Below, piece by piece: positions 34,640 through 63,790 of a stretch of 64,000 nucleotides of DNA. Where the stretch lies: assembly GCA_034780895.1 (NCBI GenBank), contig JAUZTB010000048.1, positions 43,379,718 to 43,443,717 of the forward strand, read 5' to 3'. The DNA is from Rhynchobatus australiae (taxonomy: Eukaryota). The notes below the pieces were generated by a model that ran no database searches, was not told the origin of the DNA, and worked only from the letters and a program-made list of their open reading frames with translations. The stretch's first letter is position 1; the number at the start of each line of letters is the position of its first letter. The position numbers and the translations under genes were made by a program.

Positions 34640-34840
34640 TGAAATAAAACACAGAATTCTGGAAGTATCAGCACTCAGCCAGTCAGGCAGCATCTGTGGA
34701 GAGAGAAATTCCTTTCATCAGTTGCCTTTGATTGATTTGAAACATTAACTCTGTTTTCCTCGCTCACCATAGATGCTGCCTGACTAGCTGAATATTTCCA
34801 ACATTTTATCTTTTACATCAGATGTCTGGCATCTGCAGAA
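34640..34840. mobile_element. Older fold-back PLE-derived element
   Basis: Inverted arms agtcaggcagcatct and agatgctgcctgact, with ttcatcag (minus CTGATGAA) and gaaacattaactct remnants between them. Confidence 0.65.
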
Positions 34841-37133
34841 TATTGTTCACATATTAAGGACAAGGAAGCTGTCTGTTAAAGACTGGGGGTCTAGAAACTG
34901 CAAAACTGCTCAGAAATTTGAATTTCAAGGTCCTGAGTATCATGGTGGAGCTGAAGCAGTTCATTTGGCAGTTGTTCATATGATATTTTGGTAGTTGAAA
35001 TTCTGTCTCGTTCTTGGTCAGATGGGTTTCTCTTGGATCGCAATAACTAGTGAAACCAGTGCTGTTTGACAAATCCCTGCATGGATAGGGTAAGCTGGTT
35101 GTCCCCATGTGCTGTGAGGAGAACTCCCATGGAGGGTTGTGAACAAGGGAAGGGGTGGCAAACAGTAGCATTTTTGTTTTTTCTTCCCTAGCCCCCCAAC
35201 TTCAATCCCTCTATTTAAAAAAAGTACAAAAATACATGTATAAAACACGAGGTCATGGATATACACACAAATACATTACCCTGTAATGTTAAGACTTGCG
35301 GCTGCGTTCCTCCCAAAACCAGCCAATTTAAATTCCTGCACTCACAGCTGAGTGTATGATGTTTTGTCTTGATCTGGGAGCTTTAGAGCACAGTGCTGGG
35401 TTGCAGTGCATATAACAGACTGACCTAAATAAATTGCAATCGGAACATTAAAGACCACCAGCAGCAGCATTGCTTCAGTCTATAACCTGCAGTGGCTGCG
35501 TTGCAAATCAGAGTTGTGGTCAAGAGGTGCTTTTATCTGCACTTGTGCATAAAAGTTTATCCACTCCTCTAACATTTAAATGAGTTCTGTTCCAATTTAT
35601 AAAATGCCCAGATTCTAATAGTTCCTACAGCACTTCCTGAAGCTAGGTACAGCACCACATTGGGAGGATAACTACATTGTACAAAGGTGTCTTTACATGC
35701 AACTTGCAAAATGGGTTACATCTGATATTTTTAGGTTTCTAGGAACTAGAAGGTTATATGCATTATTTGAGTGCGTGCTAGCTTTTAATAATTTATTTCA
35801 ATACAGCCTCTGCAGTTGCACAGCTGATGAATGCTTGATAGTTCTAGTGGTCAATCTGAGGTTTTTAAGACGATCACACCACCACCCAGTATCAGTCCAG
35901 GAACAGAGAATGTGCAGCATGCAAAAGCTGTAGTGTCCATGTGGCAATGAAATTCAAATCCAGCCCTAAAGCTCTGGGAGGTTTAGTAGGTCTTCATTTA
36001 CATAGTGAGCTCTGAACTGCACGACAATGTTAGTCTGCTGACCTGAGTACTCAGAAGTGGCCAAACTAAAACTTAATGTCTTCCCTAGTTCATACCCTCA
36101 CATTGTGTGAGAAGCATGCTTAGAATGCAGGTTTGTTTTGGACTGGGGTGTCACCTTGTGTAACTCGTGCTTGTTTTCTTTTGATCATCAACAAAAGACC
36201 ATGTAATTTCTTTCACACATTTTCTGTAATTTATTTTTCATTTATTTGTTCACTGGATGTGAAATTTGCTGGCGTCAGCATTTATTGCCCATCCTAAATA
36301 GCCCCTGAACATAGGCCAGATTGGGTAACAATGGCAGATTTTCTTCTGAAGAACATTAGTGATGTAGGTAGGTTTTTACAGTAAACTGATAGTTTAAGTT
36401 TACTCAGATTGACTTTCTTTTTCTAATTCCAGATTTATTTGATTACTTGAATTTCAATTCCTCAGCTCCCAGGGTGTGATTTGAACTCTTGTCCCTGGGT
36501 GACAGCCTATAATGTGTCAAAGTTGTACCAGTAGGCAGGATTTCAGTAATATTATATCTTGTATTGCACTCATGTCATTGACTGGACCTTGGCAAATTCT
36601 GGGGGACAATCTGTAACTGAGATGTAAGTCAATGTTTTGCATGCAGGTTGAGTTACATAATTGAATTTGTAAAATTTTAGGTATTTAATTTTCAAAGATA
36701 TAATGAATGCAAAATAAAAAATGGGAAATTGAATGCTATAACAATGGGTTCAAATAAAGCTGGGCTGAAGTGTTAAAATATTGAAGTCTGGAATATCCAT
36801 AGAGTTGTACAGCACAGAAACAGGCCCTTTGGCCCACCACATCCATGCCAACCTTTTAGCCCATCTACACTAATCCCATTTGTCTGCATTAAGTCTGTAT
36901 CCTTCTACACCTTGCCTATTCAAATGGGGAATTAGACAAAACTCTAACCAAGTATGGTGTTGGAATAAACCTGTAAGAAGGTGAACAAAGTGGAAGGAAC
37001 AGGGCCTTGTCATTGTTTCAAATTGACTTTTCCTATCTTGAGATGTTGAAACTTCAGCAGCCTCCCTTCCACCATCCTTCTTGCCTTCTTTATCAGCTGA
37101 TCATGGTTACTAATTGTTTGTTTTGTAAAACAG

Positions 37134-38673: not shown

Positions 38674-41389
38674 GTAAGAGACGTAACTAACAGTTAAGAC
38701 AGATTTCCTTGAATTTATCCCACAGATTCCAGCATAGTTTTAACTAGCTTTGGGGGCAAAGAGCTATAGCAAAATTCCTTTGGTTTTATTCCTGGCAGTA
38801 CAAAACAATCAACAGTGCCTGCTATGATGACATAGATTATGGTTTCATTGTGCATGACTCAGACAGAAATGTGTACTTGCTTTATATTACACATAATTGG
38901 TGATGCTTATCGTTGCTCCAGTGTGCAGTAGTGCTGAGCCAGTAACCCAGAGATTCTGTCATTAAAAGTAGGAATTGTCATAAAATTCCACCCAGTGCAC
39001 AAGTATCCTTTTTTAAGTAAAAGCTTCCAATTATTCTTACCCAGCCTTAGTNNNNNNNNNNNNNNNNNNNNNNNNNNNNNNNNNNNNNNNNNNNNNNNNN
39101 NNNNNNNNNNNNNNNNNNNNNNNNNNNNNNNNNNNNNNNNNNNNNNNNNNNNNNNNNNNNNNNNNNNNNNNNNNNNNNNNNNNNNNNNNNNNNNNNNNNN
39201 NNNNNNNNNNNNNNNNNNNNNNNNNNNNNNNNNNNNNNNNNNNNNNNNNNNNNNNNNNNNNNNNNNNNNNNNNNNNNNNNNNNNNNNNNNNNNNNNNNNN
39301 NNNNNNNNNNNNNNNNNNNNNNNNNNNNNNNNNNNNNNNNNNNNNNNNNNNNNNNNNNNNNNNNNNNNNNNNNNNNNNNNNNNNNNNNNNNNNNNNNNNN
39401 NNNNNNNNNNNNNNNNNNNNNNNNNNNNNNNNNNNNNNNNNNNNNNNNNNNNNNNNNNNNNNNNNNNNNNNNNNNNNNNNNNNNNNNNNNNNNNNNNNNN
39501 NNNNNNNNNNNNNNNNNNNNNNNNNNNNNNNNNNNNNNNNNNNNNNNNNNNNNNNNNNNNNNNNNNNNNNNNNNNNNNNNNNNNNNNNNNNNNNNNNNNN
39601 NNNNNNNNNNNNNNNNNNNNNNNNNNNNNNNNNNNNNNNNNNNNNNNNNNNNNNNNNNNNNNNNNNNNNNNNNNNNNNNNNNNNNNNNNNNNNNNNNNNN
39701 NNNNNNNNNNNNNNNNNNNNNNNNNNNNNNNNNNNNNNNNNNNNNNNNNNNNNNNNNNNNNNNNNNNNNNNNNNNNNNNNNNNNNNNNNNNNNNNNNNNN
39801 NNNNNNNNNNNNNNNNNNNNNNNNNNNNNNNNNNNNNNNNNNNNNNNNNNNNNNNNNNNNNNNNNNNNNNNNNNNNNNNNNNNNNNNNNNNNNNNNNNNN
39901 NNNNNNNNNNNNNNNNNNNNNNNNNNNNNNNNNNNNNNNNNNNNNNNNNNNNNNNNNNNNNNNNNNNNNNNNNNNNNNNNNNNNNNNNNNNNNNNNNNNN
40001 NNNNNNNNNNNNNNNNNNNNNNNNNNNNNNNNCAGCAGTTCCTGTTTCCCTTGTCTGATCAGGTGTTGACCAAAACTAAACCCCACAACAATCCTGATCT
40101 CACTGTCATTGAGTCATCCAATGATACAGCACAGAGACAGGCCCATTAGCCCACCATGTCTATGAAGTACCAATCTATACTAATCCCAGTTCCTAGTACT
40201 TGATCTGTGGCTGACCATGCCTTGAGGATTTCAATGCCCATAGATGTTGTGAGAGACTGGTGTCTCAACCTCCTCCTCAGATAGTGCATTCCAGACTCCA
40301 ACCCCACTTTGAGTGAAAAGAAATTATTCCTTGGAATTCTCTAAACCTCTTGCTCCTCATGACCTTGAGCCCTCAGGTTTTAGGCACCTCTGCCATGAGG
40401 GAAAAGTTTCTTACTATTCACCCTTCTATGTTCCTTTTAATTTTATACACTTCTACCAATTCCCCTCTCAGCTTCCTCTGCTCAAAGGAAAACAAACCCA
40501 CTCAATCCAGTCTCTCCTCGTTATTGAAATATTCCACCCCAGGCAGCATCCTAGTGAATCCTAGTGAATCTCCACGGCACCCTCTCCAGTGTAATCACAG
40601 CCTTCCTGCAGTGTGGCAACCAGAACTTCACATTGTATTCCAGCTGTATCCTTCCTGTACTCCAAGTTTTTACAACTACGATATGATGTCCCATGTGTTG
40701 TGCATTAATCTCTGGATCACTTGTGTCAGTTCTTTGTCTAGTGGAACAGTATGGAAGCTGTTTCCATAATGAGGAGATGCTGTATTCCTGGCAATTATGC
40801 TATCTACCTGTCAGGAGAGGAAGTAACATCTCCTCTCCTGTTTTAAGGCATACAACCAGACTTAGTTTTGATTGCAGCCAGCAGTTGCATCCATTTTGTT
40901 CCTATATAAGATTTGATCCATTCTCCATCTGTGCTGTGTCTTTTCATTGCCCAAGTATACTAAAGATTAAAGCAACTGAACTTGCACTCTCTATTTCCAA
41001 CGTTGGATAAGTGATAGATACTGACTTTCCAGTGACATCCACGTCCTGAAGGAGTTTCAGAATGTGGATGTCACTGGAAGAAAGAGATCCTGCTTGTCTT
41101 GGGTTTTTGGTTTCTCTAAATTGTATGAATAACTCCACTTCAGAACTACTTCATTGGGTTGTGAAGTCCTAAGTATGTGAAAGGTTGTGAGTATGGTTAA
41201 TCTTATTGTCTTGGTATCAGTGATTAAAATTAGAGTTGGTCAGATCTGGGTAACTTGAATTTTGTACACTGTAGCTGCATGATGTACAATTCTATAAGCA
41301 TGAAATTTCCTGTGGAATTGGTTTATTGCGTATGGCCTTTTTTTCAAATATGTACAAATGGCTGTGATATTTAATCTCTTCCTTCCCAG

Positions 41390-44530: not shown

Positions 44531-45496
44531 GATAACCCCAAAGGCATTTTTAAAGTCCTAGAATCATACAACACAGAAACCAGCCCTTCAGCCCAACTGG
44601 ATGCCAAACAAGATGCCCATCTAAGCTAGTCCCACTTGCATTTGGCCCATATCCCTCTCAACCTTTCCTACCCATGTACCTGTCCAAGTGTCTTCCTTAG
44701 CACCTCATAAACCCATGATTTCTGGCAGCCAGGAGGACAGGGATAGATGGTGTATAAGAATGCCTGCAGGGTCCCCTCAAGGTAAAGCACCATCCTAATT
44801 TGGATATATGTCACCTTTCCCTCATCATCACTAGTCAGAATCATGGAACTACTCACTGAAAGCACTCTGCAAGGACTGCTGCACTTCAAAAAAAATGGAC
44901 ACCTAGAGATGAGCGTTAGTTCCTGACCTTTCAGAGATAGCACCCACCTAGCACTAAAAGAAAATTCAAAGCTAATCACCCTTGCTCTTCTTTGCTGTCT
45001 TTTTCTCCATTTCAAATATTTGTTAGGCATTCCTTGGAAAATTGCCTACCTGTGGCAAAGCATTCCATGCTACAGCAACCACTTAGGCAAAGAATATCTT
45101 TAGTTATTCTCAAAACAAGTGAAATATATTTAAACATCAGTTCCTGGTGGTGCGGACGATATGAAACTCAGCCACTTGGTCTAGGTTTAGTTTGTCTTTG
45201 CTGAGTTAGCAGTTCTCAACCATAATTGACCACATCCTTCCTGGCAGAGAGGATTAATCAGCCTGGCGTCCTGCTCCTGGTAATTAGCCAGTATTCACTG
45301 CTGGAAACTGTACATGGAAGTTAGTCACGGCTTCGACAGTTTAAAGCCACATAGCTTAACAGCATTCTGGCACTTTTAAGTTGGAGATACACCCCAGCAG
45401 GATTCAGGAACATCTGTGAGGAAGAAGGGGTTGGTGTGTGAAGAGAAATGTGCATGAGAAAGATGATTGTAATATAATATGTAATATTATCCACAG

Positions 45497-47149: not shown

Positions 47150-48095
47150 GTTCGATGAGATTTCATCAGACACCTCCACACTGCTTTCAGCATTTCAAAG
47201 GACTCCTTGGCTTACTCTTCCATTGCCACCTATCACTCACCTTCAGTGTACTCCCCTTTGCAACCCTCTTATCTCACTCCTTCCCACCATCCAGAAACCT
47301 AAATGGTCCTTCCCAGTGAAACAGGGATTCACTTGCACTTCTTCAATTTAGCATATTGCTCACACTGTGGTGGTCTCTACAGTGGAGAAACTAAATGCAG
47401 GTTGGGTGAGCACTTTGCAGGACACCTCTATATGGTCCACGAGGATGGTCCTGAACGTCTAGTTGCCTGTTATATTAATTCTCCCTCCCACTCCCACTCT
47501 TACCTCTGTCACTCTGCTCCCTGCACTGTTCCAATGAAACTCTAGGCAAGTATAACAAACAGCACCTCATCTTTCATCTAGGGAAGTTGTATCCCTCTGG
47601 ATTCCAATATTGAATTAAACAGATACCCAACCTTTCCTGTTTGTGTCAGAACTGGCCCATTTCTGATATATCATCATCCACCTGCAACTTTAACTCAGTT
47701 TTTCTCTCTCCACAGATGCTGAATGATCTGCTGAATATTTCAGCATTCTCTCTAACTTCACATTTTCAGAAGCTGTTGTGCCCTGCCTCTCACAGTTCCC
47801 ACGCATTGATCTTCCTTCTCTCTAAATGCCCTCACTTATCTTCCTCTATTTATAGACAGATCAGACCAGTGATCACCTGGGATTCATTCCCCTCTGAGAG
47901 ATGGTGTACTTGGACAACCTTTGTCTCCTCCCTTTCATAGATATTCCCCTTGTTCTCCCCATCCCTCCCCTGTCTGCAACTGTTTTCTCACTTTTCCTCT
48001 TCTGACGAAGGATCACTGACTTGAAATGTTGACTCTATTCTTTCTCCAGATGTTACAAGACCAGCTGAGGCCCACAACCATTTTCTGTTTTTATC
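47150..48095 (+). mobile_element. Penelope-like retroelement 3' remnant: GIY-YIG endonuclease plus terminal repeat with hammerhead relics
   Basis: Frameshifted FTCTSS/NLAYCSHCGGLYSGETKCRLGEHFAGHL...LVACYINSPSHSHS...QHLIFHLGKLYPSG matches the PLE GIY-YIG (YIGET.R.L..RF.EH); CTGACGA...GAAA at 48002-48026. Confidence 0.85.
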
Positions 48096-48289
48096 CCAAA
48101 TTTAATATCAGGTTGATTGAGTTTAAAAAAAAGATTATCATCTCTTGATTCAAAATTCTGAGAGTTCAAATCATTTTAGGATTCTCAACATTTTAGTGGG
48201 TATTGAAATTGTTTTTGGATTGTAGAGATTGTTTTAAAAAAAACTTGGCAGAAGACACGATATCAGTGTGATTATGCAGCTGAACTGTA

Positions 48290-48690
48290 AAAGCAACCAA
48301 AAAATGCAGATGCTGGAAACTGAAATAATAGAAAATGCTAGAAATGTTCAGGTGGTCAGGAAGCATCTGGTTTTAAGTTGCAGAGAGAGTAAGGGAGAAA
48401 TGTAGGGCAAAGGGAAAGTCTCTAGTGTGAGGCCAGGGTTGACAAGGCAATATGCTATGATGAAAGAAGTTGGAGTGAACATGACAAAGGAACATAAAAG
48501 CTATGAAATGAGGGCAGTTAGAAAGAAAGAACACAAACAAAAGAAACCAAAAGCTGTGAAATGCAGAGCTGTAGAAAATGTCAAGCAGGTCAGGGCACAC
48601 TACGGGAGGAAAAACTAAGCCATCATTACAGATGGGTGACTTTCAATAGAAGTGGCCAGCTCTGATACAAACAGAGAAAACAAGTTACCT
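48290..48690 (-). mobile_element. Inverted (tail-to-tail) copy of the PLE terminal region
   Basis: 48646-48672 reverse-complements to gtttgtatcagagctggccacttct, similar to gtttgtgtcagaactggcccatttct at about 47639; also carries the tgcagatgctggaaa family end. Confidence 0.7.
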
Positions 48691-49084
48691 GGAATGGGAT
48701 CTTGATTTATCGTCTCATCCTAGATACAGTGCTACTAACGAGATAGTGTCTCTATACTGCAGTGATGCGTCAATCTTGTCTACATTAAGTTAATCTCTGC
48801 CCTTATTAATCTTTTGCACAATGATTGAGGCAGGCACAGGCCTGGTATATCTCCTCAAAGGAGATTCACTGGTCACTTGAGACTTGAATGATCTGGTTTG
48901 TGACTGCAACTAAATTCATTGAGATGTACAGCAGGGAAACAGGCCTTTCAGCCCAACTTGTCCATGCTGACCATGGTGTCCACCTGAGCGAGTCCCATTT
49001 GCCTGCATTTGGCCTGTCTCCCTCTACACTTTTCCTAACCGTGAACTTGTCCAAATGTCTTTTAAATGTTGTAAGTTCACCCAT

Positions 49085-49612
49085 GCCATACATAATTACA
49101 TCGAGGTAGTAAAACAAAAACAGAATGCAGAATATAGTGTTGTAATTACAAAGAAAGTGCAGTAGAGGTAAACAAAGTGCAAGGGCCACAACGAGGTAGT
49201 TTGGGAGAACAAGAGCTCATTTTGTAGCATATGAGTGGTCTGTTCAAAAGTCTGATAACAGTAGGATAGAAGCTGTCCTTGAGCTTGGATGTACATGCTG
49301 TCAAGTTTTTGTATCTTCTGAGAAGAGAGAATGACTAGGGTGGGAGGGAACTGAGCTGCATTTACAACTCAGTACAATTTCTTGCAGTCTTGGGCAGAGC
49401 AGTTGCCATACCAAGCTGTGATGCATCCAGATAGGATGTGTTCTGTGGTGCATCTGTAAAAATTGGTAAGAGTCATCAGGGACATGCCAAATTTCCTTAG
49501 CTTTCTAAGGAAGTAGAGGTGTTGGTGTGCTTTCTTGGCCATAGCATCTACATGGATGGACAAGGACAAATTGGAGATATTTATACTTAGGAACTTGAAG
49601 CTCTCAACCATC
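49085..49612 (-). mobile_element. Rex1/Babar LINE 3' fragment
   Basis: ORF 49369..49614 (-) ESFKFL...KKAHQHLYFLRKLRKFG...NFYRCTTEHILSGCITAWYG. Confidence 0.85.
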
Positions 49613-50253
49613 ACCCATGTGATCTCATTTTCAGACCAGTCTATTATTCAGGACCTTATCAAAGCTCTTGATATAGTCAATCCTCTTGGTGACCTCTTTC
49701 AAATAAAACTCAATTAAATTTGTGAGACATGATTTCCCACACCCAAAGCAATGCTGGCTATCCCTAATCAAAGGGGAAGATTTTGTAATTGGCAGAAAAG
49801 AATATCATGGAATTCCAGGAAAACATAATTGGTAAAAGCCAGATAAAGTGCAATTGAAAGTTTTAATTCGCTTGTTTATGCTTTAGGTTTTTGATGTAGT
49901 TGGTTAAGTACCAAATTAACTTGAATTCAAGGTGAAATGTACTATCTGTGCAGCTTTTATACTTGGGAGTTTTGGTGCTGGGTTATGGTTTCTGAAGTTT
50001 CTTACACTACAAAATGTGAAGATAACTCCCAACATCACTTTATTAGGAACCAATCACTCATTTGGAAACTGGCGTTCATTGAGCTCGCTTTAAAGTAATG
50101 CAAAAGATGCTAGTGGATTTGCATTTCTGTGGCGCCTTTCAAGACCTTGTACCATCTTAAAACATTTCACAATCAGTAAAGTAATTTGTGTAAGCACTGT
50201 TATAAAGTGGGGATATCTTTTGACACTACTGAATTCTAATTAAACTTTTCCAG

Positions 50254-52234: not shown

Positions 52235-52752
52235 CCAATGTTGTCACCTTTTCAAAAAGGACAGCAGGGATAAAACAAGAAACCACAGGCCAGTGAGCCT
52301 GATGTCAGTGGTAGGGAAGTTGTTGGCGAATATTTTGAGGGACAGGATTTATGTTCACTTGTTAAAGCAGGGACTGATTAGGAGGTAGCGTGGTTTTGTG
52401 CAGGGGAGTTCATGTCTTACAAATCTGATTCAGTTTTTTGAGGAGGTAACTAAGAAAACTGATGAAGGCAGAGCAGTTGATGTGGACATTAATAAGGCTT
52501 TTGACAATGTCCCACAGGTTGGCTGGTCCAGAAGCTTCTGGCACAAGGGATCAGAGGCATGCTGGCAAACTGGATCCAAAATTGGCTTGGTGACAGGAGG
52601 CAGAGGGTAGAGGTGAATGGCTGTTTTTCTGACTAGTGTACCACAGCAATCGGTGCTAGGACCTTTGTTGTTTGTCATGTATATAAATAACTTTGGATGA
52701 GAATGTAGATGGTGTGATTAGTAAGTCTGCAGATAACATGAACATTGGGGGA
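52235..52752 (+). mobile_element. CR1 RT fragment
   Basis: ORF 52398..52610 SCLTNLIQFFEEVTKKTDEGRAVDV..NKAFDNVP. Confidence 0.88.
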
Positions 52753-57915: not shown

Positions 57916-59565
57916 GTAAGTCAAAATTTGGAGTTTGAGAAATCCATTTGACACTAAATACAGCAAAGTGTCACGTAAACTCTCTTGACATGCAGCCTGA
58001 CCTCTTCACATAAAAATACTTTATATTTTATGGACAGTATTAAATCATTAAGAGTTGGGCCTTTGATTATTAGNNNNNNNNNNNNNNNNNNNNNNNNNNN
58101 NNNNNNNNNNNNNNNNNNNGTTCCCATGCTGTGCTGTTCTAGGATGTTCCACTGGCCAGGGATTTCAGTTTGGATCGAGGGCCATGTTAATGAAGTAAAC
58201 TTTTATTGGAACCAATTATCAGCCTCAAATTTAAAACTCTACATGCTGAAGAATAACTAAATACAAATATCTAAACTTACAAGCAGAGCATATTTTGATA
58301 CCAGGTGGAAGTTCCTGCCTGATTCCCATACCTCAAGATTTCCCTCCTATTTCAAAAAAGTCTATTTTTTCTCACTGTATACGGTGCTCAAGGTGTGTAT
58401 GAAGGTCCTTGCAATTACAGCAAGACTTCCTCACTCCTGCATTCAAACTCCCTTGCAATAAAGACCAATATACAATTCTGCGAATGAATTCTTTGCCAGC
58501 ACTTCCTTGTTAATTTAATATTTCATGAATCAGCCCACTAACTTTGTTTTATGACCTTTGCAAGCTTGTTTTAACTTTTTAAATATTCTTTTCTTTCTAC
58601 CAAAATGGATCTGTATTCCCCACATTATTCTCCATCTGCTATTGTCTACCCACTTGTTTAACCTGTCTCCATCCCTCTGCTGACTCATCCTCTACATCTC
58701 AATTTCCTCCTAGCTTTGTATTGTCTGCAAACCTGCATACAGTACATTGTCATTTTATCTAATTCATGAATGTAAACTGAATAACTGAAATCCTAATACT
58801 GATCCCTGTGAACCCCAGTAGTAACACTTTCATAGTTAAATATCCAGTGAATACAATTTATTCATACTGTTTTCTGTTTGTTCACCAATGAAGGCAGCGT
58901 ATTACCCCCCCCCAATCCTTCTCGTGACACTTTATTGAAGCCTTCTGAAAGTTCAAACGCACAATGCCCACAGGGTCAGTGGCCACCTTTTACAAACCCT
59001 TGGAATGTGAGTCATTGATCCTGGCATTTATTGGCATTTAGTCCCATTAATTTCTCTAATGCTATTTTGTCACTAACATCAATTTCTTTCTCTTCCTCCT
59101 TCACTGTTGACCTCTATTAAACTCCACTATTTCCAGGTTTTCTGTGTCATCTTCTACGAAGATGGGAACAAATATTTGTTTAATATTTCTGCATTTTTCT
59201 ATATTTCCTAGGCTCAAAAATATTTTCTGTTAGTGTACTCCCCTCTCCTCTGAAGAAGTTGTCTCCTTATTGGTTAAATTCTGTATGCATCATGTTCCTG
59301 GTATACATTGTGACCCTAAACTATGACCAGGACATTTTATACATGTTAGGAGAAGGGAGGAGGGTGTCTCCATCTCAGACAAGCCCTAATATGCCTTTGC
59401 CAAAATCTACCTGCATGTTTCCACTTGCATTACTGATATCTGACAAGAGCACCAGGCCTGATGTGTTTTCACTTTTCCAATTCACTGCCAACACAGTAGC
59501 ACTTAAATGGACTGACTATACCATACTGAACACCTCCCAGAACAACAAACTCAGCAGTCTTCCAC

Positions 59566-59603
59566 CTGTCCTGATGAAGGGTCTCAACCCGAAACATCGA
59601 CTG
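59566..59603 (+). ncRNA. Minimal type I hammerhead ribozyme motif (PLE type), sense to the RALGAPB pre-mRNA
   Basis: ctGTC-CTGATGA-A-GGGT-ctca-ACCC-GAAA-ca-TC-GACtg: intact core boxes, 4-bp stem II, short stem I, predicted cut after 59598. Activity is not demonstrated. Confidence 0.6.
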
Positions 59604-59700
59604 TTTATTTCCCACCATAGATAATGCCAGGCCTGCTGAGTTCCTCCAGCACTTTATGTGTGTTGCTCCAAATTCCAGCATCTGCAGAAGCTTTAGAGTT
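59570..59700 (+). mobile_element. PLE-derived 131-bp insertion with a 10-bp TSD
   Basis: TTCCACCTGT direct repeats at 59560-59569 and 59701-59710; family sequence ctgctgagttcctccagc...ttccagcatctgcag. Confidence 0.85.
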
Positions 59701-60025
59701 TTCCACCTGTTGTGGTTTCTAAAAAACTGGTGCTTGCACTGAACCACCATGTGAAGCTTCATTATGAGAAAAGAATACCTCTTTTCACTCTGGTCGAAAT
59801 GCTAATTTAGTAAGAAATGAGCATTAAATAGTTTAAAACAAAATTCTATATTCTTCAATTGTGATTGCAATGAAATATTCATTGAAATGTTAAACATCCA
59901 TTTAACATACCTTTTGATTTAAAAATAATGTTGGTATTTTAGCTGCCACTCCATGCTCATTGAATCCATCATCTTGAGTGCCACAATATTGCAGAGTGAT
60001 CATTACTTTACTGTTATGTTTGTAG

Positions 60026-60162
60026 CTGACTCTTTGGAGAGTGGACTTGCAACACAAGAGACAGAGACACAGATGGACCTGCTGCCAAGCCTCCTGAAAC
60101 AAGCCCCACTGACCTTGGAGCTCTTCCCAAATCATTCTGACAACCTCGGCAATTCGCAAAGG
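60026..60162 (+). CDS. RALGAPB: RALGAPB coding exon: (T)DSLESGLATQETETQMDLLPSLLKQAPLTLELFPNHSDNLGNSQR
   Basis: ttgtAG / GTGAGA; 137 nt, phase 1 to 0. Confidence 0.94.
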
Positions 60163-61474
60163 GTGAGATTCTCTCAGCCACAGATTTATTCTTCCAGTAA
60201 TTAAGACTGTAGTATCAGCTTTGTATGTACTGTGTGGAACCCTGCTGCACATTAATGTGTTCAAAAATACCTACCCCCAAATCCTCAATTGTTGTTGTTA
60301 TAAACAAAAGTTAATCAAAATTCTGCTTTTGTTTAACTTTTTTCATTATGAAATCCTGCACAACAATACCTTTTACTTGGGTGAGATTTGGACAGCATTC
60401 CTTCCTAAACCACAACCTCTGAATATTAGCAGCTTACCCCCTTACTCTTTGCTATGAGCAAACTACTGGCTGCATTTCCCTGCGTGGTGGCTTTCACTGT
60501 TGAAGTTCATTGTCAGCTTCATTCAATGTTGGTATTCTCATCCTTGGCGTAGAGGCTGTGGACTTTAAGTACAGTATCAAAGGGTGCAGTCTTTTAGTCT
60601 TGTTTTAATCAAAGAACCAATCTGTCTTCTCAAGTGGATGTTCGCCATCCATTATTTTAAAGAAGAGCATGGGGACAGCATCATGAAAGCCTTTAACTGA
60701 TCTTCTATCTCACAGTCAGTGGGAGCAAACTTCTTGCTGTCATCTGTGTAATGAGCAATTGNNNNNNNNNNNNNNNNNNNNNNNNNNNNNNNNNNNNNNN
60801 NNNNNNNNNNNNNNNNNNNNNNNNNNNNNNNNNNNNNNNNNNNNNNNNNNNNNNNNNNNNNCTGTCATCTGTGTAATGAGCAATTGAATTTAAAGAATGC
60901 TTTCATTTAATGTGAAGCATTTTAGGACGATGGGTGCAAAATGTGTTTTGTAATGCAGATTATTACTTCTACTGGGAGCCATTGAAATCACCAATGGGAT
61001 TCTACTGGGAGCCATTGCAATCATCATTAGTGGCTTGCCCCTAGCTGGAGCACTGTTGTCACCGAGAGTCACTGCCAGGTGACCTATCCTGAGCACACAA
61101 CCATGCTGAGCTTAGTCCACAGCCTAATGTTGGCAATCAGATTCAACTATGCACATCAATTGTTGTTTCCCCCCGAATTTAACTCCAGTCCTGTGGAGGC
61201 TGTCAACGATGATGGTGTGCATTCTGATGTGGTTGGTTGAGTTGTCTGCCCAGACGGTGTGTCTGAACAAGTGAAATCTTCTGACCTGACCACTTCAGTC
61301 ACCAGCAGAAGTGCTGCTCAACAGCAAACCTCAATGCTGTTAATGTGCTTGCTGAAGCAGATCAGAGTATTTATCACTGGCTGAATACCTCCAGTTTCCA
61401 ATGCAGAGAAGTCTCATTGGCCATGTCTCTGAGCCCTGCAGCAGTACTAGGAGGATGTGCACATTGCAGAGGTG

Positions 61475-63059: not shown

Positions 63060-63790
63060 GCCAGGAAAATACTTGCTGTGGAGAAGGTTGTGGAAGCTAG
63101 AAAGAACAGTGATGTCCTGAAACATCTCAACATTATGAAAGAGGAGGTACTGGCAGTCTTGAGGCACATAAAGGTCTGTAAATCCCTAGGGCCTAACCAA
63201 GTGCATCTTAGGACGTTGTGGGAAGCTAGGAACGAAATTGGTGCGGGCCTGGCAGAGATTATTGTATCTCCCTTCACCACAGGTGCGGTACCAGAAGACT
63301 AGAGGGTGGCTAATGTTGTGCCTTTACTTAAGGAGGGCTGCAAGGACAAGCCAGAGAACAATAGGTCAGTGAGCCTAACATCAATAGGAAAGTTACTGGA
63401 GGGGATTCTGAGGGACAGGATCTATCTGTATTTGGAAAAGCAAGAATGGATTAGGGACAGTCAGCATGGTTTTGTGCGTGGGAAATCATGTCTCACAAAT
63501 TTGATTGAGTTTTTGTTTTGAAGAGGTGACCTAGAGGGTTGATGAGGGAAGGTGGGTAGACATCGTCTACTTGTACTTCAACATGGCCTTTGACAAGTCC
63601 CACATGGTAGGCTGGTCTGGAAGGTTAAATCTCATGGGATCCAAGGTTAGCTAGCCAATTGGATACACAATTGGCTTGCTGGTAGGAGTCAGAGGGTAGT
63701 AGTGGAGGTATATTTTTAAAATTGGAGGCCTGTGACCAGTGGTGTGCTGCTGGGATTGGTGCTGGGCCTTCTGTCAAAATTGGTGCTGAA
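63060..63790 (+). mobile_element. CR1 RT fragment
   Basis: ORFs 63078..63302 and 63306..63521: KSLGPNQVHLRTLWE, ANVVPLLK...RSVSLTS, QHGFVRGKSCLTNLIEF. Confidence 0.9.

Follow-up and report, generated by a model that had tools for sequence, protein, structure and literature searches.

The 131-bp insert in an intron of RALGAPB is most probably one copy of a very abundant repeat, namely the 5'-truncated 3' end of the pLTR of a GIY-YIG Penelope-like element (PLE), with a hammerhead motif that is predicted to be inactive. The window, i.e. the whole stretch of DNA that was analysed, comprises 64,000 nucleotides from Rhynchobatus australiae (contig JAUZTB010000048.1), and all positions refer to it. 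The insert belongs to a dispersed repeat family, is truncated relative to that family, is present in relatives, and lies in sense orientation to its host gene. By the sequence features tested, its hammerhead motif belongs to the minimal hammerheads of PLE pLTRs.

Host intron and hammerhead motif

With two ray RALGAPB proteins as queries (tblastn), 21 and 20 exon blocks were found in order on the + strand, and the 46-residue translation of the exon downstream of the insert matched human RalGAP beta (PDB 9qwp_B, E 1.8e-12) as well as RALGAPB of rays and skates (96-98%) and of sharks (85-91%), which makes a batoid host likely. The placement made in the original prediction, intronic and sense to RALGAPB, is thereby confirmed. 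The insert lies 315 nt ahead of the acceptor, and from its sense position inside the intron its transcription is predicted. Three of the RALGAPB blocks are crowded at 23341-23979 with gaps of about 75 and 200 nt; introns elsewhere in the gene are of kilobase size. The features of the insertion site are:

57916..60025, + strand: host RALGAPB intron (GT...AG); the next exon is 60026-60162
59560..59569, + strand: left copy of the 10-bp direct repeat, likely a target-site duplication, with final bases similar to the family sequence preceding the hammerhead (microhomology)
59566..59570, + strand: hammerhead stem I, 5' strand; 3 pairs, then 1 past a U-U mismatch
59570..59700, + strand: repeat copy of 131 bp, likely the end of a Penelope-like pLTR after 5' truncation
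59571..59578, + strand: core C3-A9 (CUGAUGA) and extra base 9/10.1 (sequence inspection)
59579..59590, + strand: stem II of 4 bp, capped by a tetraloop; its pairs are predicted with a probability of 0.74-0.99
59591..59598, + strand: G12-A14, stem III remnant ACAU, and C17; A at 59596 breaks the palindrome, and the cut is predicted after 59598
59599..59603, + strand: hammerhead stem I, 3' strand
59690..59700, + strand: likely decayed 3' end of the family (in related runs, about 14 shared letters and then mixed flank)
59701..59710, + strand: right 10-bp direct repeat

Inspection of the sequence bore out the original description of exact 10-bp direct repeats (TTCCACCTGT) that enclose 131 bp opening at a hammerhead core. 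The complete minimal type I hammerhead extends over 59568-59601: GUC (59568-70) is paired with GAC (59599-601) in stem I; the core C3-A9 (59571-77) is intact and is followed by an extra A (59578) between positions 9 and 10.1; stem II (GGGU/ACCC) carries the loop CUCA and is closed by G10.1-C11.1 (G59579-C59590); and G12-A14 (59591-93) are followed by A15.1, C15.2, A16.2 and U16.1 (59594-97) and by C17 (59598), with the predicted cut between 59598 and 59599. Present among the membership features are thus the core CUGANGA with GAAA, U16.1-H17, helices I and II, the extra base (A59578) and G10.1-C11.1; the palindromic 15.1-16.1 is present as the family majority and absent from this copy. A minimal-hammerhead descriptor, run on both strands, had 59568-59601 as its sole match in the window and matched none of 60 Markov-1 null windows. 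The Rfam hammerhead gave no match in the whole window at gathering score and none in 59300-60000 even at E<=10, so that the model search proposed earlier was negative with Rfam and positive with the minimal descriptor. These results support the assignment to the PLE type that had been made from the sequence.

A 10-nt antisense match between the left flank (59548-59557) and the element (59633-59642) is predicted to pair around the hammerhead. It had been considered as an inverted element remnant and was set aside; two related runs (X9, X10) read G at 59553, which makes a chance match likely.

Folding predictions suggest that the hammerhead of this copy is likely inert, as the original prediction of a weak or inactive copy had it. 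The change of G16.2 to A breaks stem III (ACAU has two mismatches in a homodimer); stem I is cut to 3 contiguous pairs by flank DNA, unlike in two other family copies in which all 5 positions are paired; the lowest-energy fold pairs G5-G8 with C15.2-C17 and so occupies the core (z -0.70, a folding energy not improved over shuffles); and there is no intact partner in the window. Stems I and II are predicted to form. In published systems, minimal motifs did not cleave as monomers and cleaved little as dimers (PMC4209133); in an Anolis PLE, cleavage by the hammerhead depended on the protein of the element, insertion did not require the motif, and read ends were absent from the cut site (PMC11167929); and one of nine Xenopus dimers was cleaved (bioRxiv 10.64898/2026.07.22.740005).

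The repeat family in the window and in related runs

A profile built from four copies gave 12 matches in the window at E<=0.0013 (5 sense, 7 antisense), of which four are the training copies; a reversed decoy gave 0. The copies diverge by 7-12% from the four-copy majority. The match nearest to the insert is 11 kb away, and the only other sense copy in the window that bears the core, 11.5 kb upstream, is decayed. Two family units are head-to-head pairs (4836-5080 and 34645-34844), and an exact 10-bp direct repeat surrounds only one of eight family units examined. Two same-subfamily features are:

4836..5080, no strand assigned: head-to-head pair of same-subfamily copies (profile and repeat comparison)
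22008..22146, - strand: single same-subfamily copy, antisense to RALGAPB; ACGU intact, G12 lost

Both head-to-head pairs sit in RALGAPB introns. The pair at 4836-5080 has 77-nt arms of 94% complementarity, which in the pre-mRNA would fold into a long hairpin and might be a substrate for editing. A 75-bp inverted repeat (21413-21487/22148-22222, 93% complementary) has one arm abutting the 5' end of the copy at 22008-22146, and may possibly represent flank DNA that was duplicated and inverted at insertion.

Five copies retain the whole motif. Their column majority at stem III is ACGU (C at 15.2 in 3/5, G at 16.2 in 3/5 aligned copies), complete in one of the five. CpG decay yields CA or TG forms, and the copies without ACGU carry CA or TG variants as such decay predicts, in agreement with the original proposal of an ACGU consensus broken by a CpG-type change. 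Across the five copies 36 of 45 cells are paired (80%), vs 16-42% in slid controls; covariation in so few copies amounts to one change from C-G to U-A and is not above shuffles (173/500). AUGU or ACAU after CpG decay is found among the copies at 4900-4944 (-), 48001-48038 (+) and 59594-59597 (+); since AUGU and ACAU are fully complementary, a mixed dimer could in principle restore stem III.

Contigs of four related runs (X2, X3, X9, X10) were aligned on 59100-60250. The element is at this place in all four, with its core letters there masked by repeat depth. Right-flank contigs start inside the element, at 59660-59670, in 4/4 runs, and this junction passes the 31-letter rule of the comparison in each (31-41 letters), if the boundary is 59700. 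Left-flank contigs extend to 59595 in two of the runs and end at 59564 in X3, and X2 has no cover there; the left-junction contigs thus cover 26 letters of the element at most, short of the 31-letter rule. The flanks differ from the window at 28 of 498 letters in X9 and at 20 of 348 in X10 (5-6%), and since the insert is present in both, the insertion predates that split and is old. The direct repeat TTCCACCTGT is likely a target-site duplication; no empty site was seen at 59560-59710 among the joints listed for the four runs, and no listed joint skips the element. Both repeat ends resemble the family's own ends, so the borders of the element are uncertain by a few bases. In one orthologous contig (X9, record 25) the alignment ends immediately ahead of 59596, which hints weakly at a difference between species in this base.

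The summed element depth was 28,000-102,000 in X2, 224,000-593,000 in X3, and 0.95-1.96 million in X9 and X10, and the depth of single-contig flanks in the related runs was 2-15. The summed depth is not a copy number; the ratio of element to flank (about 10^4-10^5) points to a very abundant family. In each of the four runs 162-910 contigs continue 5' of 59568, and the sister copy described below follows a GIY-YIG remnant; both speak against the original claim of a distinct mini-element that starts at the hammerhead. Upstream of 59568, about 15 pyrimidine-rich consensus letters are common to the four runs, and the agreement of the upstream loose ends is only 0.34-0.39. On the 3' side, about 14 shared letters after 59687/59689 give way to mixed flank, i.e. 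the family has a sharp 3' end. The exact 31-nt family pattern matched neither viral nor metagenome contigs (0 in each).

On the 5' strand of stem I, the pyrimidine tract of the family closes with CAG and resembles a splice acceptor, as is also seen at 22776-22800 (-); the copy at 59570 is without this acceptor-like AG. An intron of the Drosophila virilis Penelope ends at the 5' end of helix I (PMC4209133).

GIY-YIG remnant and comparison with known systems

The family was linked to PLEs through a second locus of the window, about 11 kb upstream of the insert, with the following features:

47223..47604, + strand: decayed, frameshifted C-terminus of a Penelope-like GIY-YIG endonuclease (HMMER relatives, alignment)
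47698..47736, + strand: partial repeat copy between the remnant and the copy at 48001
48001..48099, + strand: sister-subfamily copy with decayed hammerhead (E 1e-7), about 400 nt after the GIY-YIG remnant

The region 47223-48368 has the appearance of a decayed Penelope-like 3' end, with GIY-YIG, a partial tandem of two pLTR pieces in sense orientation, and a further pLTR piece in antisense at 48305-48368. A full HMMER search with the remnant gave 16 relatives, 13 of them from sharks, skates and rays; all 16 align back to 47223-47604, and five have Pfam GIY-YIG at E<=0.01, one of these above the cut-off. Atlas ranked a GIY-YIG cluster third for the remnant, at 0.93. The remnant has no Pfam match of its own and was spotted by eye; GIY-YIG was absent when 150 of the 161 stop-free frames with at least 70 aa were compared with Pfam, and a word-based homolog search with the remnant was blank, which is weak evidence. 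No reverse transcriptase or full-length element was found by a word-based search for a full-length ORF (likewise weak evidence).

The copy at 48001 represents a diverged subfamily and was absent from blastn with the 59570 copy. A whale-shark protein (P0124) ties the 59570 subfamily indirectly to the endonuclease: its N-terminus is an antisense reading of this subfamily that runs into a GIY-YIG fragment, with scores of 57 and 53 vs a 99th-percentile null of 28. That the repeat follows the end of a GIY-YIG ORF is thus seen in sequence for the sister subfamily, and would hold for the 59570 subfamily by analogy. Seven metagenome loci with GIY-YIG were retrieved, two of which (L006, L007) were discarded as short matches of 22 residues within long but unrelated frames; all of the remaining five (L001-L005) have a hammerhead core (<=1 mismatch) 105-455 nt downstream on the same strand, for which the chance with the relaxed core is about 0.15 per locus by hand estimate, and the strict descriptor matched at two of them. 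A near-identical hammerhead stem II, resembling the ray motif, is found in four of these loci (L001 2259, L002 761, L003 3445, L004 3503), which likely represent one related element family of another animal. The query P0131 found no related locus in viral contigs.

The motif at 59568 and the PLE minimal hammerheads of PMC4209133 are alike in the core, the extra base 9/10.1, G10.1-C11.1 and the short helix I. The extra base is described there as a conserved trait of these hammerheads; the extra A of the original prediction is present, and is more than the tolerated base as which it was characterized. The published motifs have a palindromic 15.2-16.2 without loop 3, which is lost in the 59568 copy, and helix II is of 4 bp here vs 7-8 bp in schistosome families. 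They are mostly single motifs attributed to truncated PLEs, as here. Cartilaginous fishes are not named in the portions of that paper examined, which include two supplementary files.

Neptune/Nematis-type EN+ PLEs (PMC8557442) have a C-terminal GIY-YIG followed by a pLTR with hammerhead, and share with the family 5' truncation, partial tandems and inverted copies. Their CX2-5CxxC linker is present in three relatives of the remnant (P0125, P0126, P0131); it is not aligned, and so not recoverable, in the window remnant. EN+ PLEs carry a reverse transcriptase, whereas none was seen for the family here, and by this linker the family may belong to these clades. In Poseidon PAc of Anolis carolinensis (PMC11167929) the hammerhead likewise precedes a fixed 3' end by about 110-130 nt (111-118 nt in PAc, counted from the AUG at stem II; about 127-130 nt in the present copy, counted from the core AUG at 59574), and copies of both span the cut site; PAc belongs to another clade by its linker motif, and has an ORF start at the hammerhead.

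Animal non-LTR retrozymes (PMC7229834; bioRxiv 10.64898/2026.07.22.740005) are similarly short and non-coding, have a type I hammerhead and are related to PLE pLTRs, and their monomers are common in introns, where the 59570 copy is also located. They are tandem repeats with mostly canonical hammerheads and circular RNA, in contrast to the single dispersed copy with a minimal motif at 59570, which is without the hammerheads in at least two consecutive tandem units that mark a retrozyme. Of the two terms offered in the original prediction, PLE-terminal therefore stands through the link to GIY-YIG, and retrozyme-like does not (single copy, no tandem). The amniote intronic hammerheads of RECK, CTCL and DTNB (PMC6155905) are of type I in introns of vertebrate genes, as here; these are few, highly conserved, and have tertiary contacts, whereas the 59568 motif is a decayed member of a high-copy family.

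Proposed origin and alternative explanations

In the favoured reading, the endonuclease of the element would have nicked the RALGAPB intron, reverse transcription would have proceeded from the fixed 3' end and been arrested after about 130 nt, and the new strand would have been attached at a microhomology of a few bases within stem I, with the 10-bp duplication at the site as the result. As the copy spans the cut site, the template was likely uncut or rejoined RNA. Position 16.2 would later have changed by CpG-type decay (G16.2>A), and the copy would now be transcribed passively within the intron with no cleavage, since minimal PLE hammerheads need a dimer or the protein of the element, and in this copy stem III is broken, stem I is down to 3 bp, and the window offers no intact partner. 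Target-site duplications of 8-10 bp and microhomology joins have been described for PLEs (PMC3846280), and head-to-head and opposite-strand copies are PLE traits (PMC8557442, PMC3846280); the head-to-head pairs and the copy after the GIY-YIG remnant are as expected for a PLE pLTR. Of the tested features, 5' truncation, head-to-head and partial-tandem copies, and a fixed 3' end were found for the family.

The insert might alternatively descend from the pLTR as a discrete, non-autonomous unit (about 150 nt) that is transcribed by itself and copied in trans by a PLE enzyme (SINE-like or a retrozyme monomer), with its 5' end near stem I. All three same-subfamily copies that retain the core begin within about 8 nt of C3, which together with the short stretch of upstream agreement (about 15 letters in four runs) could mean such a unit; retrozymes derived from pLTRs are reported in one chondrichthyan genome (bioRxiv 10.64898/2026.07.22.740005); and head-to-tail joints exist, in that the 3' end of the repeat is followed by the hammerhead start in one contig of X10 and one of X3 (59569-59687, a unit of about 118 nt). 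Among the 15 joints listed, however, a single one goes back (by 118 nt), as against nine to the opposite strand, with five skips; no copy starts are piled up at the cut site among the 24 loose ends listed; depth peaks in the 3' bin in all four runs, as under 5' truncation; the family extends upstream and the sister copy follows an ORF end; and there is no tandem array at the 59570 site. The discrete unit is therefore considered unlikely. The back-joints of X10 and X3 fall at a five-letter motif common to both repeat ends, and may represent nascent retrozyme-like tandems. More improbable still is that the insert is what recombination or deletion spared of a larger insertion (a solo pLTR), or that its 10-bp repeat is not a true target-site duplication. 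Formation of solo pLTRs by such events is described (PMC3846280), and both the lack of an empty site among the joints listed for four runs and the resemblance of the repeat ends to family sequence would fit, but a full solo pLTR should include the upstream family sequence that is missing at 59570, and a 10-bp direct repeat in equal geometry occurred at only 162 of 181,353 random places (0.0009 per element).

A domesticated ribozyme that cuts RALGAPB pre-mRNA about 430 nt before the exon, slowly or assisted by protein, and alters splicing or level in the manner of the conserved amniote intronic hammerheads, is judged very improbable from the sequence. Its sense orientation, the intactness of every core position, the sole strict descriptor match of the window, the predicted formation of stems I and II, and retention at the site in 4/4 related runs are what such a ribozyme would display. 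Retention across species is explained by fixation alone, though, and an intact core is no sign of selection, because at a divergence of 7-12% roughly a third of copies would keep the 12 core bases (hand estimate); moreover, stem III is broken, stem I is short, a loop for tertiary contacts is absent, the predicted fold occupies the core, and the break before 59596 in X9 weakly hints at change between species. If true, a vertebrate host gene would here be served by a minimal hammerhead of Penelope origin, from a family with perhaps tens of thousands of such motifs in each genome. That the hammerhead consensus was matched by chance is hardly credible: the missing Rfam match and the folding energy and covariation at the level of shuffles would be expected in that case, yet the descriptor was silent in the null windows, pairing in the five copies was well above that of slid controls, and the same core lies downstream of 5/5 independent GIY-YIG loci.

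The truncated pLTR copy at 59570 by itself matters little. Its hammerhead motif is real and slightly decayed, and the copy is an ordinary one, likely a fossil of a kind of retroelement already known (PMC4209133). No description of this family in cartilaginous fishes was found among the matches listed in the literature searched, a search to which Repbase and Dfam were external; the report of retrozymes in one chondrichthyan genome may cover it in its supplements (bioRxiv 10.64898/2026.07.22.740005). The family seems very abundant in rays, and hammerhead matches of this kind are to be expected in many introns when shark and ray genomes are scanned. With thousands of copies one could test if PLE copies arise from RNA that has not been cut, if introns are depleted of intact sense motifs, and if microhomology at pLTR ends gives rise to retrozyme tandems.

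Other mobile DNA is also present in the window. Further dispersed repeat families occur on both strands (18667-18725, 36792-36906, 40109-40167, 44551-44694, 48911-49061 and others) and are likely SINE or LINE ends. Another reverse transcriptase is present in fragments at 9090-9475, 52389-52691 and 63597-63740 (Pfam RVT_1, E 0.007; tblastn) and is likely LINE-type, and a frame at 49372-49647 (-) that matches Pfam ALKBH8_N (E 5e-10) is likely retroelement-derived.
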